From assembly GCF_002854065.1 (NCBI RefSeq), contig NZ_CP024147.1: a DNA stretch of 64,000 nt. One strand, given 5' to 3'. This DNA comes from Escherichia coli. Its GTDB lineage: Bacteria > Pseudomonadota > Gammaproteobacteria > Enterobacterales > Enterobacteriaceae. The notes below the pieces were generated by a model, which was given only the letters and a program-made list of their open reading frames with translations, ran no database searches and was not told the origin of the DNA. Positions 76 through 53,180 of the stretch are shown one piece after another (positions within the stretch are counted from its first letter, which is position 1; each line of letters starts with the position of its first letter). The position numbers were made by a program, and so were the translations under genes.

Positions 76-148
76 GAAAGACGCGCATTTGTTATCATCA
101 TCCCTGAATTCAGAGATGAAATTTTGGCCACTCACGAGTGGCCTTTTT
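76..148 (+). ncRNA. micA: MicA (SraD) small regulatory RNA
   Basis: Sequence GAAAGACGCGCATTTGTTATCATCATCCCTGAATTCAGAGATGAAATTTTGGCCACTCACGAGTGGCCTTTTT matches the MicA sRNA as I recall it; ends in a GC hairpin plus T-run; lies just downstream of the gshA 3' end. Confidence 0.85.
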
Positions 149-156
149 CTTTTCTG

Positions 157-1740
<1,584 letters not shown>

Positions 1741-1785
1741 TTAATTAGCATAACTGTAATGGTGACCATATGTGCAGGCCTACAA

Positions 1786-2214
1786 TTAGTGCCACCACAT
1801 CATGCCCTGAACGGTCGCTGCTGCAACTGCAACATAGCGTAACGCTTTACCAAGGCACAAAAAAAAGATTACCGGCCCCCAGGAGATGCGCATCCATCCC
1901 GCTAACAGACACAGTAAATCGCCAACCACGGGCATCCAGCTTAATAATAGCGTGACTGCACCATAGCGTTTCAGCCAGCCGGTAGCTTTCTCTTGCCAGC
2001 GCGATGTTTTACGCAATGGAAAGAAACGCCCAAGGATAACGTTAGTTAACCCTCCAAGGCTATTACCCATTGTTGCTGTTAAAACTAAAACCCAGGGATG
2101 ACTGATCCCGGAAAGCAACATTGCCACCAGCACGACTTCGGAGTTGCCGGGTAATAGTGTAGCGCTGAGAAAACTACTGGCAAACAACGAGAAAAGCGAT
2201 AACGCTTCACTCAC
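1786..2214 (-). CDS. yqaA: DedA/YqaA-family inner membrane protein
   Basis: 142-aa hydrophobic ORF in the expected position after gshA. Confidence 0.85.
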   Translation of the reverse strand: MSEALSLFSLFASSFLSATLLPGNSEVVLVAMLLSGISHPWVLVLTATMGNSLGGLTNVILGRFFPLRKTSRWQEKATGWLKRYGAVTLLLSWMPVVGDLLCLLAGWMRISWGPVIFFLCLGKALRYVAVAAATVQGMMWWH

Positions 2215-2777
2215 AGCAAGCGAACATCCACAGCGTCCATGCCTGCTGCACGGGCCGCCTGAATACCGAAATCGGCATCTTCAAAGACCACACACTGCGT
2301 CGGTTGCACGCCCATACGCTGCGCGCACAACAAAAATGTGTCTGGCGCGGGTTTATGGTGTTTGACGTGATCGGCAGCGACGACGGCGTCAAAATAACGG
2401 CGTAATCCCAGGTGCGCCAGCAATGCCTCAGCGATGGCGCTTTCACTCCCCGTTCCTACAGCCATTGGGCGACGACCATGCCAACTTTTCACCACATCAA
2501 CAAGAGGAAGCGGTTCGACGCTATCCAGCAGCATACTTCTGACTGCTTCTGTTTTTTCACGCGCTAACGCATGCGGGTCGAGATCGGCCTGATTCAGCTC
2601 AATAATTGCCTGAGCAATACGCCAGGTGGGCGAGCCATTAAGCGCAATCATTGCCTGAACATCGTACTGAAGACCGTAGTGCCCTAATACTTCGCGCCAC
2701 GCTTTACGGTGCGTAGGCTCCGTATCCAGGATTGTGCCATCCATATCAAAAATTAAACCTGCATAACGCTCGTACAT
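2211..2777 (-). CDS. yqaB: HAD-family sugar phosphatase
   Basis: 188-aa ORF with HAD motif FDMDGTILDTE near the N-terminus; 4-bp overlap with yqaA. Confidence 0.9.
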   Translation of the reverse strand: MYERYAGLIFDMDGTILDTEPTHRKAWREVLGHYGLQYDVQAMIALNGSPTWRIAQAIIELNQADLDPHALAREKTEAVRSMLLDSVEPLPLVDVVKSWHGRRPMAVGTGSESAIAEALLAHLGLRRYFDAVVAADHVKHHKPAPDTFLLCAQRMGVQPTQCVVFEDADFGIQAARAAGMDAVDVRLL

Positions 2778-2921
2778 GGTCTTCTCGCAAGTCGAAAAAT
2801 ATGACGCTACTTTAGCGTAATTGCTTGATTTTGTCGCTGATGGCGAAGGAGAAGAAAATTCAGGAAATGGATAAAGTAGTTATTTAGAAATGAGATATTT
2901 TTGAAGGAAATTTTTTGGAGA

Positions 2922-3057
2922 AGATGGTGCATCCGGGAGGATGACTCACTGGCGTTCGCCCTTCGGGCCGTTGCTAAAGCAACGTTATCCTTCCTGGTGC
3001 CTGCGGTTAATTCCGCTACCTCTTCGATATCTTCATTGCTGAAGATTTCGGAGAATA
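2922..3057 (-). repeat. Repeat unit 1: truncated tRNA-Arg 3' end (2925-2941, 17 nt) fused to a ~116-bp hairpin-rich module, directly abutting the 3' end of the first intact tRNA-Arg
   Basis: TGGTGCATCCGGGAGGA matches the 3' end of the neighbouring tRNA-Arg genes then diverges; module contains palindromes CGTTGCTAAAGCAACG and GCCCTTCGGGC; a second copy is at 3536-3651. Confidence 0.7.
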
Positions 3058-3134
3058 TGGTGCATCCGGGAGGATTCGAACCTCCGACCGCTCGGTTCGT
3101 AGCCGAGTACTCTATCCAGCTGAGCTACGGATGC
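3058..3134 (-). tRNA. argQ: tRNA-Arg (anticodon ACG)
   Basis: Reverse complement gives GCATCCGTAGCTCAGCTGGATAGAGTACTCGGCTACGAACCGAGCGGTCGGAGGTTCGAATCCTCCCGGATGCACCA; copy name assigned by order only. Confidence 0.93.
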
Positions 3135-3236
3135 ATCGGGAAAATTTATTTTACTGCTGATATTGATATCGCTACTAAAGCCATATCAAATAAGAAAATC
3201 CATCTTAACCATCATCACTGATGATTACGGAGAATA

Positions 3237-3313
3237 TGGTGCATCCGGGAGGATTCGAACCTCCGACCGCTCGGTTCGTAGCCGAGTACTCTATCCAGCT
3301 GAGCTACGGATGC
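3237..3313 (-). tRNA. argZ: tRNA-Arg (anticodon ACG)
   Basis: Identical 77-nt tRNA-Arg sequence; copy name by order only. Confidence 0.93.
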
Positions 3314-3375
3314 ATCGGGAAATTTATTTTACTGCTGATATTGATACCGCTACTAAAGCCATATCAAGTAAGAGA

Positions 3376-3452
3376 TGGTGCATCCGGGAGGATTCGAACC
3401 TCCGACCGCTCGGTTCGTAGCCGAGTACTCTATCCAGCTGAGCTACGGATGC
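3376..3452 (-). tRNA. argY: tRNA-Arg (anticodon ACG)
   Basis: Identical 77-nt tRNA-Arg sequence; copy name by order only. Confidence 0.93.
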
Positions 3453-3535
3453 ATCGGGAAACTTACTTTACTGCAGATTTTTTGATACCGCTACTAAAGC
3501 CGTATCAAGTAAGAGATGGTGCATCCGGGAGGATT

Positions 3536-47704: not shown

Positions 47705-47869
47705 TCTACGCTATTTGCCTGCGAAACGTGCGCGGCGCAACTAACGCTTAGTTCACATAAAATAACACACAATGTTAATTTTTGTGAATCAGCTCACCAT
47801 ATCGTTATCTTCCAGCGCTTATATTCACAATATCAAACAAAATATCACTTAAATTAACAATGAGAGCAG

Positions 47870-48777
47870 ATGAAAACGGGATCTAGTTTCATGTCGGTAT
47901 CGTTGGCTTAGGGTCAATGGGAATGGGAGCAGCACTGTCATGTGTCCGCGCAGGTCTTTCTACCTGGGGCGCAGACCTGAACAGCAATGCCTGCGCTACG
48001 TTGAAAGAGGCAGGTGCTTGCGGGGTTTCTGATAACGCCGCGACGTTTGCCGAAAAACTGGACGCTCTGCTGGTGCTGGTGGTCAATGCGGCCCAGGTTA
48101 AACAGGTGCTGTTTGGTGAAACAGGCGTTGCACAACATCTGAAACCCGGTACGGCAGTAATGGTTTCTTCCACTATCGCTAGTGCTGATGCGCAAGAAAT
48201 TGCTACCGCTCTGGCTGGATTCGATCTGGAAATGCTGGATGCGCCAGTTTCTGGTGGTGCAGTAAAAGCCGCTAACGGTGAAATGACTGTCATGGCCTCC
48301 GGTAGCGATATTGCCTTTGAACGACTGGCACCCGTGCTGGAAGCCGTTGCCGGAAAAGTTTATCGCATAGGTGCAGAACCGGGACTAGGTTCGACCGTAA
48401 AAATTATTCACCAGTTGTTAGCGGGCGTACATATTGCTGCCGGAGCCGAAGCGATGGCACTTGCAGCCCGTGCGGGGATCCCGCTGGATGTGATGTATGA
48501 CGTCGTGACCAATGCCGCCGGAAATTCCTGGATGTTCGAAAACCGGATGCGTCATGTGGTGGATGGCGATTACACCCCGCATTCAGCCGTCGATATTTTT
48601 GTTAAGGATCTTGGTCTGGTTGCCGATACAGCCAAAGCCCTGCACTTCCCGCTGCCATTGGCCTCAACAGCATTGAATATGTTCACCAGCGCCAGTAACG
48701 CGGGTTACGGGAAAGAAGACGATAGCGCAGTTATCAAGATTTTCTCTGGCATCACTCTACCGGGAGCGAAATCATGA
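47870..48777 (+). pseudogene. ygbJ: 3-hydroxyisobutyrate dehydrogenase-family oxidoreductase with a -1 frameshift near codon 6
   Basis: ATG at 47870 gives MKTGSSFMSVSLA* in one frame; the Rossmann motif VGIVGLGSMGMG is encoded in another frame directly upstream of the track ORF (47917), preceded by in-frame TAG at 47884-47886. Confidence 0.75.
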
Positions 48778-50675: not shown

Positions 50676-51452
50676 ATGCCTCGTTTTGCAGCTAATTTAT
50701 CCATGATGTTCACCGAAGTGCCTTTTATTGAACGCTTCGCCGCAGCGCGAAAAGCCGGGTTCGATGCTGTGGAATTTCTGTTTCCCTATAACTACTCCAC
50801 CCTGCAAATCCAAAAGCAACTGGAGCAAAACCATCTGACACTGGCGCTGTTCAATACCGCTCCCGGAGATATTAATGCGGGGGAATGGGGATTATCCGCC
50901 CTTCCCGGACGTGAGCACGAAGCACACGCAGACATCGACCTGGCACTGGAATATGCATTGGCGCTCAATTGTGAACAAGTCCATGTAATGGCAGGCGTCG
51001 TGCCCGCTGCCGAAGATGCTGAACGGTACCGGGCAGTATTTATCGATAATCTCCGCTACGCTGCCGACCGCTTTGCGCCACACGGCAAGCGAATATTAGT
51101 TGAAGCACTCAGCCCCGGCATTAAGCCTCATTATCTCTTCTCCAGCCAGTATCAGGCACTGGCTATTGTTGAAGAAGTTGCGCGAGATAACGTGTTTATT
51201 CAACTAGATACTTTTCATGCGCAAAAAGTAGATGGCAACCTGACGCATTTAATCCGCGACTACGCCGGGAAATATGCGCACGTACAAATTGCCGGACTAC
51301 CTGATCGACATGAACCGGACGATGGAGAAATCAACTATCCGTGGCTGTTCCGCCTGTTCGATGAGGTGGGATATCAGGGCTGGATCGGTTGTGAATATAA
51401 ACCTCGTGGCCTCACCGAAGAAGGACTTGGCTGGTTTGACGCCTGGCGCTAA
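50676..51452 (+). CDS. ygbM: Xylose isomerase-like TIM-barrel protein (hydroxypyruvate isomerase family)
   Basis: 258-aa [24 protein letters not shown]. Confidence 0.85.
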
Positions 51453-51540
51453 TTCGTTAAATCCCTAATTACAACGTACCCATACATCCCCCCATCTACG
51501 GATGGGGTAGGTTAACTATAACTTTCAGACAGGGTTTCCC

Positions 51541-52836
51541 ATGTCCACAATTACATTGTTATGCATTGCGTTAACTGGCGTAATCATGCTGTTGCTGCTG
51601 GTCATCAAGGCAAAGGTACAACCATTCGTTGCTCTGCTCCTCGTCAGCCTGTTAGTCGCACTTGCGGCGGGTATACCGGCGGGCGAAGTGGGTAAAGTGA
51701 TGATCGCCGGGATGGGCGGTGTGCTTGGTTCCGTCACTATTATTATTGGTCTGGGCGCTATGCTGGGGCGTATGATCGAACACTCTGGTGGTGCAGAGTC
51801 ACTGGCTAATTATTTCAGTCGCAAGTTAGGTGACAAACGAACTATCGCTGCGCTGACTCTGGCAGCGTTCTTCCTCGGTATTCCCGTCTTCTTTGATGTC
51901 GGCTTTATTATTCTTGCGCCAATCATTTACGGTTTTGCCAAGGTTGCCAAAATATCGCCACTCAAATTTGGCCTGCCTGTCGCTGGGATCATGCTAACTG
52001 TACATGTGGCGGTACCGCCGCATCCAGGCCCTGTCGCCGCAGCAGGGTTACTCCACGCAGACATCGGCTGGCTAACCATCATCGGTATTGCGATTTCTAT
52101 TCCCGTAGGGATTGTTGGCTACTTTGCAGCGAAAATAATCAATAAGCGCCAATATGCGATGTCGGTGGAAGTACTGGAACAGATGCAACTGGCTCCGGCC
52201 AGTGAGGAAGGCGCGACAAAATTAAGCGATAAAATAAATCCACCGGGCGTCGCGCTGGTCACCTCGCTAATTGTTATTCCTATCGCGATTATCATGGCGG
52301 GTACGGTTTCCGCAACACTGATGCCGCCTTCGCATCCCCTGCTTGGTACGCTACAGCTGATCGGCTCACCAATGGTAGCTCTAATGATTGCGCTGGTGCT
52401 GGCATTCTGGTTATTGGCTTTACGTCGCGGCTGGAGCTTACAACACACCAGCGACATTATGGGCTCAGCGCTTCCTACTGCGGCGGTAGTGATTTTGGTT
52501 ACTGGTGCTGGAGGGGTATTTGGCAAAGTGCTGGTGGAATCGGGCGTCGGCAAAGCCCTTGCCAACATGTTACAAATGATTGACCTGCCTCTGTTACCAG
52601 CCGCATTTATTATTTCACTGGCGCTGCGTGCATCGCAGGGGTCAGCAACCGTAGCAATACTGACAACCGGCGGGTTACTCTCAGAAGCGGTGATGGGATT
52701 GAATCCGATTCAGTGCGTATTGGTGACGCTGGCAGCCTGCTTTGGTGGGCTTGGTGCGTCACATATTAATGACTCAGGGTTCTGGATTGTGACCAAATAT
52801 CTGGGATTGTCGGTAGCAGACGGTCTGAAAACCTAG
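51541..52836 (+). CDS. ygbN: GntP-family permease, apparently truncated by an in-frame TAG
   Basis: 431-aa polytopic ORF; the 22 codons after the TAG (TVLTTILGFTGFLITWCVWAVI, ending TGA at 52903-52905) are in frame and hydrophobic. Confidence 0.8.
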   Translation: MSTITLLCIALTGVIMLLLLVIKAKVQPFVALLLVSLLVALAAGIPAGEVGKVMIAGMGGVLGSVTIIIGLGAMLGRMIEHSGGAESLANYFSRKLGDKRTIAALTLAAFFLGIPVFFDVGFIILAPIIYGFAKVAKISPLKFGLPVAGIMLTVHVAVPPHPGPVAAAGLLHADIGWLTIIGIAISIPVGIVGYFAAKIINKRQYAMSVEVLEQMQLAPASEEGATKLSDKINPPGVALVTSLIVIPIAIIMAGTVSATLMPPSHPLLGTLQLIGSPMVALMIALVLAFWLLALRRGWSLQHTSDIMGSALPTAAVVILVTGAGGVFGKVLVESGVGKALANMLQMIDLPLLPAAFIISLALRASQGSATVAILTTGGLLSEAVMGLNPIQCVLVTLAACFGGLGASHINDSGFWIVTKYLGLSVADGLKT

Positions 52837-52912
52837 ACAGTGTTAACGACCATTCTCGGTTTTACCGGATTCTTAATTACCTGGTGCGTATGGGCGGTAA
52901 TTTGACCTTAAT

Positions 52913-52943
52913 AAAAAGGTCCGATGAGCATCGGACCTTTTAT
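52913..52943. terminator. Bidirectional terminator between ygbN and the convergent decarboxylase operon
   Basis: AAAAAGGTCCGATGagcaTCGGACCTTTTATTT, stem-loop flanked by A-run and T-run. Confidence 0.75.
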
Positions 52944-53180
52944 TTAGCGCTTATCTGCCGCCAGCAGCGGCGGAATGCTCGGCACCATTGGCGCGTCATC
53001 AATATCTTTCTGCGTCATGCGGAACTCTTCGGGATAATGTTCGCGGCTGGTACGGCGCAGCGGTTCGGTATCGCGCCAGGTATAAAGGCAATGCTGGCAC
53101 TGATATACCGTCCAGACATCTTTCACCGGCGATTTCGCCATCACTTCAATCTGTTCATCGGCACAACGTGGACAAATCAT
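52944..53180 (-). CDS. Small subunit of a UbiD-type aromatic acid decarboxylase (YclD/KpdD-like)
   Basis: 78-aa ORF MICPRCADEQIEVMAKSPVKDVWTVYQCQHC with CxxC...CxxC zinc-ribbon-like cysteines, immediately after the UbiD-like gene. Confidence 0.75.
   Translation of the reverse strand: MICPRCADEQIEVMAKSPVKDVWTVYQCQHCLYTWRDTEPLRRTSREHYPEEFRMTQKDIDDAPMVPSIPPLLAADKR

Follow-up and report, generated by a model that had tools for sequence, protein, structure and literature searches.

A conserved RNA stem-loop in the ygbM–ygbN spacer of the Escherichia coli threonate/erythronate operon, probably a stability or attenuation element

The window—the whole stretch of 64,000 nucleotides analysed here—lies in the mutS–rpoS region of the E. 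coli chromosome and contains the ygb genes, which form the threonate/erythronate operon. The repressor gene ygbI is encoded on the minus strand and is followed on the plus strand by ltnD (ygbJ), otnK (ygbK), otnC (ygbL), ygbM (otnI), and ygbN. On the 3′ side of the operon lie a hydroxyarylic-acid decarboxylase cluster, a MarR-family gene, and rpoS. The last enzyme gene of the operon, ygbM (50676–51452, plus strand), encodes 2-oxo-tetronate isomerase, and ygbN (51541–52905, plus strand) encodes a transporter of the GntP family. The TAA stop codon of ygbM occupies positions 51450–51452 and the ATG of ygbN begins at 51541; hence, the spacer between them runs from 51453 to 51540, and the original prediction, which had placed a hairpin in an 88-bp gap between these two genes inside a putative operon, assigned both spacer and genes correctly.

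The ygbM product scores 394.6 bits against the NCBIfam model for 2-oxo-tetronate isomerase (NF043033; cutoff 325), and the protein is a TIM-barrel isomerase of family PF01261. The RefSeq/PGAP label for ygbM in all E. coli matches is ‘HPr family phosphocarrier protein’, which derives from NCBIfam NF007441 (PRK09989); it looks as if hydroxypyruvate isomerase was confused with HPr when this model was named.

Both the first and the last gene of the operon are altered in the window. In ygbN, a nonsense change at codon 432 (TGG to TAG, 52834–52836) removes the last 23 residues of YgbN, leaving 431 amino acids vs 454; the change is shared with strain CUWW06, in which RefSeq treats ygbN, with its internal stop, as a pseudogene. 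The start of ltnD (47860–47911) has one G fewer than K-12 and strain 88-3493 at about position 47885 (GATCT-AG vs GATCTGAG), with the consequence that the frame runs into a TAG at 47909–47911, and the Shine–Dalgarno sequence AAGGAG of this gene reads AATGAG in the window. Since ltnD is intact in CUWW06, the nearest complete genome, the frameshift reflects either a pseudogene particular to this strain or an error of sequencing. Taken together, the ltnD frameshift and the ygbN nonsense change suggest that the operon is decaying in the lineage of the window.

The control region of the operon is the divergent one between ygbI and ltnD (47705–47869, plus strand), which contains TTCACA/TGTGAA repeats and holds the only YgbI site found by ChIP-exo, at ygbI/ygbJ (PMC8464067); the transcripts that run through the hairpin originate here. 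The operon ends after ygbN in a canonical intrinsic terminator (52912–52945, plus strand; AAAAAGGTCCGAT-GAGC-ATCGGACCTTTTATTT). With an A-tract, a 9-bp stem (GGTCCGAT..), and a T-tract, this terminator looks bidirectional; it is missed by the consensus scan, probably because the A and T tracts lengthen the stem, and it gives weak, sub-threshold Rfam matches (C0465 and cyano_het_sRNA). Two sigma-70-like promoter matches lie antisense in the 5′ part of ygbN (51809–51836 and 51922–51950, minus strand), one of them scoring 10/12 with an extended −10 TG, and the number of such matches is no higher than in shuffled sequence.

The hairpin itself spans positions 51490–51507 on the plus strand. As predicted, its stem is perfect and GC-rich: the 5′ arm CCCCAUC (51490–51496) and the 3′ arm GAUGGGG (51501–51507) form seven pairs, five of them G–C, around the loop UACG (51497–51500). 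The loop, c(UACG)g, is a UNCG sequence closed by a C–G pair and is thus an extra-stable tetraloop of the UNCG type. Folded alone, the hairpin has a free energy of −12.7 kcal/mol, and in a 208-nt mRNA context each of its stem pairs has a predicted probability of 0.94–0.98. It is separated from the ygbM stop by 37 nt and from the ygbN AUG by 33 nt. Upstream of it, the 37 nt at the 5′ end of the spacer (51453–51489, plus strand), with 12 C and 2 G, are variable, rich in C and poor in G, and predicted to be mostly unpaired.

Downstream of the stem, an A/U-rich linker (51508–51527, plus strand; UAGGUUAACUAUAACUUUCA) leads to the ribosome-binding region of ygbN. Within the linker, ACUUU at 51521–51525 may speculatively be read as a match to the RNase E motif RN|WUU, as that motif is defined elsewhere (PMC5927463). 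The linker is followed by a second small hairpin (51528–51545, plus strand; GACAGGG-UUU-CCC(A)UGUC) that encloses both the Shine–Dalgarno sequence AGGG (51531–51534) and the AUG (51541–51543) of ygbN. In the 208-nt fold, the Shine–Dalgarno sequence and the U and G of the start codon have a probability of being unpaired of at most 0.04, and the predicted structure probably lowers the initiation of ygbN translation. Another predicted hairpin, at 51509–51524, is weak and is not conserved in the enterobacterium L089 described below; it is not claimed here.

An intrinsic terminator combines a G–C-rich stem of about 5–14 bp and a short loop with a U-tract of at least about five U in eight nucleotides. 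The stem-loop has the former (7 bp, five G–C pairs, 4-nt loop), but the eight bases that follow it (TAGGTTAA) include three T and no T-run, in agreement with the original prediction, and the corresponding RNA tail (UAGGUUAA) thus has three U. The consensus scan reports no intrinsic terminator anywhere in the spacer. A search of the spacer against Rfam at a permissive E-value gave a single overlapping match, SAM-Chlorobi at 16.8 bits (gathering threshold 35, E = 7.8), which is noise. A dispersed repeat of the REP, BIME, or MITE kind was also considered and rejected, as the hairpin is 18 nt long, is without the REP consensus, and occurs once per genome. Among complete E. coli genomes, a 38-nt segment centred on the hairpin is present in at most one copy and the 88-nt spacer in a median of one and a maximum of two (the latter where a phage splits the locus); neither has a match outside the ygb locus in these genomes.

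A perfect 7-4-7 inverted repeat might also be read as DNA, that is, as an operator bound by a dimeric regulator of a separate ygbN promoter, and ygbN is listed in databases as its own transcription unit, as stated in PMC8464067. Several observations render this barely credible. The consensus scan found no sigma-70-like promoter on the plus strand of the spacer, and the single ChIP-exo site of YgbI lies at the other end of the operon. A mismatch-tolerant search detected no relative of the palindrome in the window, including the control region at 47705–47916; nor does the hairpin resemble the sequence of the ygbI–ltnD region, which was compared in place of a defined operator motif of YgbI, a DeoR-type regulator.

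Whether the stem-loop exceeds chance can be judged from the E. coli sequence only in part. Of 5000 dinucleotide shuffles of the spacer, 83 (1.7%) yielded a perfect stem with a minimum of 7 bp and five G–C pairs, and there are dozens of spacers in a 64-kb window; the window contains 15 such hairpins, compared with 7.9 ± 3.1 in shuffles. The whole 88-nt spacer is not unusually structured relative to its shuffles (z = −0.74). Because these statistics are only mildly unusual, the hairpin in this one sequence is no more than suggestive. They sit comfortably with the view that it has no function: the palindrome would have arisen by chance or be what is left of an old, decaying terminator, and would look conserved in Escherichia only through low divergence. 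That it exceeds chance follows from conservation and covariation and not from single-sequence statistics.

Of 5426 complete E. coli genomes, 4591 contain the ygb locus. Among these, the full 88-nt spacer is identical in 3308 and the 38-nt segment around the hairpin (51480–51517) in 4569, with the other 22 carrying a mismatch. The hairpin is unchanged in the E. coli variants compared, in E. albertii, in E. marmotae, and in two further Escherichia lineages. Across Escherichia, the first 85 nt of the spacer contain eight variable sites, all of them within the first 34 nt. Apart from these, only position 51538 varies: E. marmotae and Escherichia sp. KTE11 have T in place of C, which keeps the affected pair of the ribosome-binding-site hairpin as G–U. 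The linker at 51508–51527 is invariant within the genus and partly kept in L089 (TAACTAT.ACTT). This distribution points to constraint on the hairpin and on the region 3′ of it, in which structure and sequence are not separated at the shallow depth of Escherichia; the small divergence within the genus is likewise what an element without function would show.

Greater depth is provided by two enterobacteria, L089 and L088. In L089, YgbN and YgbM are 88% and 78% identical to their E. coli counterparts, ygbM DNA is 72% identical, and the locus has the same rpoS–nlpD neighbourhood; YgbN of L088 is 84% identical to that of E. coli. Their spacers are 84 nt (L089) and 83 nt (L088) long and, in the 5′ part, can barely be aligned with that of E. 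coli. Both nevertheless contain a hairpin in exactly the same register, namely CCUCAUC-UCAC-GGUGAGG in L089 and (G)CCCUGUG-UUCG-CACAGGG(C) in L088. Conservation of the stem in orthologous loci, which had been suggested as a check, is thus borne out: all seven pairs are kept in the two lineages through four double changes and one U–G wobble. All 28 pair cells of the alignment are standard pairs (100%). Of 500 column shuffles, one attains such pairing and double changes, and when the partner is slid by one to three columns, pairing drops to 57% or less and double changes almost vanish.

The loops, by contrast with the pairs, change freely: c(UACG)g in E. coli, g(UUCG)c in L088, and UCAC in L089, with UNCG in two of the three lineages. 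The covariation sample consists of three independent hairpin sequences. When RNAalifold was applied to 12 enterobacterial spacers, it recovered only part of the helix, as the more distant hairpins are shifted in register, and for the same reason the counting of pairs was limited to the three in-register lineages. As far as these alignments go, the pattern indicates selection on RNA pairing rather than on a DNA motif. The sequence of the half-sites changes across lineages while complementarity is kept, and the U–G wobble of L089 pairs only as plus-strand RNA and is a mismatch in a DNA palindrome, which speaks further against an operator. The absence of function also fits poorly, since the seven pairs are maintained at about 28% divergence of coding DNA, whereas the loop and the upstream spacer are scrambled.

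Protein searches with E. coli YgbN returned mostly near-identical E. coli variants, and queries from Entomohabitans and L089 added a few intermediate lineages. In each spacer examined in which ygbM is directly followed by a ygbN orthologue, there is a strong hairpin of unrelated sequence; this holds for Entomohabitans, L090, Serratia ureilytica, Pantoea sp. A4, Gallibacterium salpingitidis, and an Actinobacillus species. Compared with their own shuffles, six independent ygbM–ygbN spacers gave p values of 0.07, 0.10, 0.07, <0.01, <0.01, and 0.04, for which our own Fisher combination is about 1e-4. Where ygbM closely precedes a different gene (Salmonella diarizonae, Gallibacterium genomosp. 1, and Chelonobacter; L004, L006, and L007), the spacers are short (18–39 nt) and hairpin-free. 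Both the excess over shuffles in six independent lineages and these short, hairpin-free spacers argue against a structure devoid of function, and we regard that explanation as decidedly unlikely. In some Pasteurellaceae, ygbM is followed by a hairpin that does have a U-tract and is a true terminator (L015, L017, and, in L018, the second hairpin).

The position of the structure is also regular. In Escherichia, L089, L088, L090, Entomohabitans, Serratia, and Gallibacterium, the strongest hairpin has no U-tract and ends 27–33 nt before the ATG of ygbN, in spacers that range from 83 to 129 nt; in Pantoea, Actinobacillus, and Yersinia this spacing is not kept. A distance of 27–33 nt corresponds approximately to the 5′ edge of the 30S footprint. 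The hairpin might therefore serve ygbN, either as a 5′ protector after RNase E cleavage upstream, in the manner of papBA, or as an insulator that shields the ribosome-binding and standby region from the variable, C-rich sequence 5′ of it. The invariance of the linker and ribosome-binding region in Escherichia is in line with this, and 5′-protective hairpins are documented in E. coli operons (PMC5927463). However, destroying the stem in silico leaves the predicted ribosome-binding-site hairpin unchanged, the constant spacing may reflect nothing more than a lack of indels in homologous spacers, and the three genera just named depart from it. The message that would be protected is, moreover, the scarcer one, ygbN RNA being about 3-fold less abundant than that of ygbM (see below), and a role on behalf of ygbN is accordingly unlikely. 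A related idea, prompted by the retention of a stem-loop about 30 nt upstream of the ygbN start in several genera while the sequence turns over, is that the hairpin is a cis-regulatory handle for the transporter, such as a site for an RNA-binding protein (e.g., ProQ) or one state of a switch by which substrate availability would govern the translation or decay of ygbN. This is conceivable and highly improbable; if true, it would give the transporter a post-transcriptional control apart from the repression of the enzymes by YgbI.

Transcription across the hairpin can be followed in strains without the repressor. Loss of YgbI de-represses the five genes from ygbJ to ygbN together, as reported in two independent studies (PMC8464067 and PMC6452873). 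In the DESeq2 results for the ygbI deletion (PMC8464067, Dataset S6), the log2 fold changes are 5.55 for ygbJ (baseMean 842), 5.15 for ygbK (927), 5.09 for ygbL (284), 4.62 for ygbM (306), and 3.95 for ygbN (176), the last corresponding to about 15-fold. To obtain read densities, baseMean was normalized to gene length and adjusted for the share of the wild type, which gives mutant densities of about 1814, 1545, 863, 758, and 242 per kb for the five genes in the same order. Uniform transcript coverage, which the original prediction had named as an observation that would count against a functional element, is not what these values describe: at gene level, density falls about 3.1-fold from ygbM to ygbN (758 vs 242 per kb).

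In the repressed wild type, the densities are 15.6 per kb for ygbN vs 30.8 for ygbM. Because ygbN lies below ygbM even here, nothing points to a constitutive promoter of its own for ygbN, a result that the operator reading would not predict. As ygbN is induced about 15-fold and the only YgbI site found is at ygbI/ygbJ, 3.6 kb upstream, transcripts cross the hairpin; and as this induction from the upstream promoter is accompanied by a drop of only about 3-fold, the hairpin is not an efficient terminator. The suggestion that it is a stability or processing element or a partial attenuator rather than a terminator therefore holds in its negative half, given the missing U-tract and the read-through into ygbN. 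The positive half fits the compensatory pairing and the roughly 3-fold drop, and the hairpin is probably a stability or attenuation element whose mechanism we infer from these features.

The step-down coincides with the hairpin, and its attribution to the hairpin is likewise inferred, for a drop of this size could equally come from poor translation, faster decay of membrane-protein mRNA, partial termination, or mapping effects. In the same K-12 data from the ygbI deletion, the ygbK–ygbL junction also shows a drop, of about 1.8-fold. In K-12, otnK (ygbK) is 1167 nt long vs 1263 nt (L001 2476–3733 vs L002 3475–4737), which leaves a 91-nt untranslated gap before otnC, and the drop at that junction possibly arises through polarity. 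In published Term-seq tables (PMC7815308), the only entry near ygbN is the rpoS terminator, annotated as antisense to ygbN, and the tables of PMC5927463 contain no ygb entry; the ygb operon was repressed under the conditions of both studies.

The fall in RNA also bears on whether the hairpin acts on RNA polymerase itself. It might be a partial attenuator or pause site, assisted perhaps by NusA/NusG or with Rho loading afterwards on the C-rich, untranslated spacer, such that about two thirds of transcripts end before ygbN. The stem is stable and G–C-rich, RNA falls about 3-fold across the spacer, and C exceeds G (C/G about 1.7 in 78-nt windows), most strongly in the C-rich stretch upstream of the stem; the true terminators that follow ygbM in Pasteurellaceae suggest descent from a terminator. 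However, only three U occur in the eight nucleotides after the stem, hairpins at the same position in other lineages have no U-tract, and the scan reports no terminator here. For Rho, rut signals lie downstream of such hairpins (PMC6061677), but the downstream C/G ratio here is about 0.8–1.1. Together with the roughly 15-fold induction that still reaches ygbN from the upstream promoter, these features make attenuation somewhat unlikely.

The reading that we prefer, with a probability of roughly 45%, is that of an intercistronic stem-loop that protects the mRNA upstream of it and so sets the ratio of enzyme to transporter, in the way of malE–malF and of the elements described by Dar and Sorek. 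The hairpin would lie inside a polycistronic ltnD–otnK–otnC–otnI (ygbM)–ygbN mRNA and be mostly read through by RNA polymerase. At 37 nt past the stop codon and 33 nt before the AUG, it is beyond the usual footprints of terminating and initiating ribosomes, and it can thus stay folded on a translated message. With its ribosome-binding site and AUG enclosed in the second small hairpin, the ygbN segment seems to be translated weakly, and this would expose it to RNase E or Rho. Once RNase E had cleaved this segment or Rho had terminated it prematurely, the 3′-to-5′ exonucleases PNPase and RNase II would trim back until halted at the UNCG-capped stem. The outcome would be a stable message from ltnD to ygbM and less message for the transporter, at a ratio of about 3:1.

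The exonuclease barrier, the downstream cleavage or termination, and the causal link between hairpin and step-down are taken here by analogy with established cases. Stable hairpins without a U-tract bound differentially decaying segments of E. coli operons (PMC5927463), form the 3′ ends of Rho-terminated transcripts (PMC6061677), and guard against PNPase and RNase II (PMC5927463 and PMC6061677). One observation that a pure 3′ barrier does not predict is the near-constant distance from the hairpin to the ygbN AUG, which in Enterobacterales may simply be inherited.

Among known systems, malE–malF and the Dar and Sorek elements (PMC5927463) are closest. In these, as in the ygb operon, a stable hairpin without a U-tract stands where an abundant upstream segment of the transcript gives way to a scarcer downstream one, its structure is conserved in relatives, and polymerase reads through. 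The ygb hairpin is, however, intergenic and unrelated to REP, whereas malE–malF is a REP sequence and most Dar and Sorek elements lie inside the downstream open reading frame; and the likeness rests on structure, conservation, and abundance, whereas the class is defined by a 3′ end, half-life, and dependence on exonucleases. The stem-loops at Rho-terminated 3′ ends (PMC6061677) similarly have terminator-like energies, few U after the stem, and surroundings in which C exceeds G. They differ in that their downstream gene is not co-expressed, whereas ygbN is expressed by read-through, and in that their C-rich stretch lies downstream of the hairpin and that of the ygb spacer upstream.

Comparison with the remaining classes brings out further differences. 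Like an intrinsic terminator, the hairpin has a G–C-rich stem and a 4-nt loop and stands just after a stop codon, but it has no U-tract and permits substantial read-through, and the terminator of the operon is the one at 52912–52945. Like REP and BIME sequences, it is a palindrome between genes of an E. coli operon and could halt exonucleases; REP elements, however, are dispersed in hundreds of copies, whereas this 18-nt hairpin occurs once per genome and has no REP consensus. A 5′-protective hairpin of the papBA type is also intercistronic and closely precedes the downstream cistron, whose start codon lies at a fixed distance, but here that cistron, ygbN, is about 3-fold scarcer (in abundance, not half-life) rather than favoured. 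In the lac operon, Murakawa and colleagues reportedly described (in 1991) a lacZ–lacY stem-loop at which lacZ-only transcripts end, giving a graded expression ratio and natural polarity. That junction likewise joins an enzyme to a permease and carries a stem-loop, but the sequences are unrelated.

The hairpin belongs to a well-known kind of element, of which it is a new example that had not been annotated before, and it raises no new question of RNA biology. If the preferred reading—protection of the upstream message—is true, the hairpin explains why databases split the operon into ygbJK, ygbLM, and ygbN despite one repressor site for five genes, and it accounts for transporter message being less abundant than enzyme message. 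It would also add a clean non-REP, intergenic example, supported by covariation, to the class of hairpins that reshape operons. With 18 nt, a UNCG loop, and a step-down of roughly 3-fold, it may be a compact part for setting expression ratios in synthetic operons.

Two rearrangements of the spacer were also noted. In Entomohabitans relatives L087 (2278–2500) and L094, in which YgbN is 78% identical, the spacer is 223 nt long and the hairpin is weakened, carrying an A–C mismatch. A relic of an NAD-binding gene's 5′ end (ATGCACATCATCATCACCGGCGGGGGCGGCTGA vs ATGCAGATTATCATTACCGGCGGGGGCGGCTTT) remains in this spacer; that gene follows ygbM in Salmonella diarizonae, which implies that a deletion brought ygbN next to ygbM in these relatives. 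In E. coli OkiPb01711 (L085), a Mu-like prophage with Mom and Com genes at its end lies inside the ygbM–ygbN spacer. The insertion point corresponds to 51509/51510 of the window, two bases past the hairpin, and ygbN is thereby cut off from the operon.
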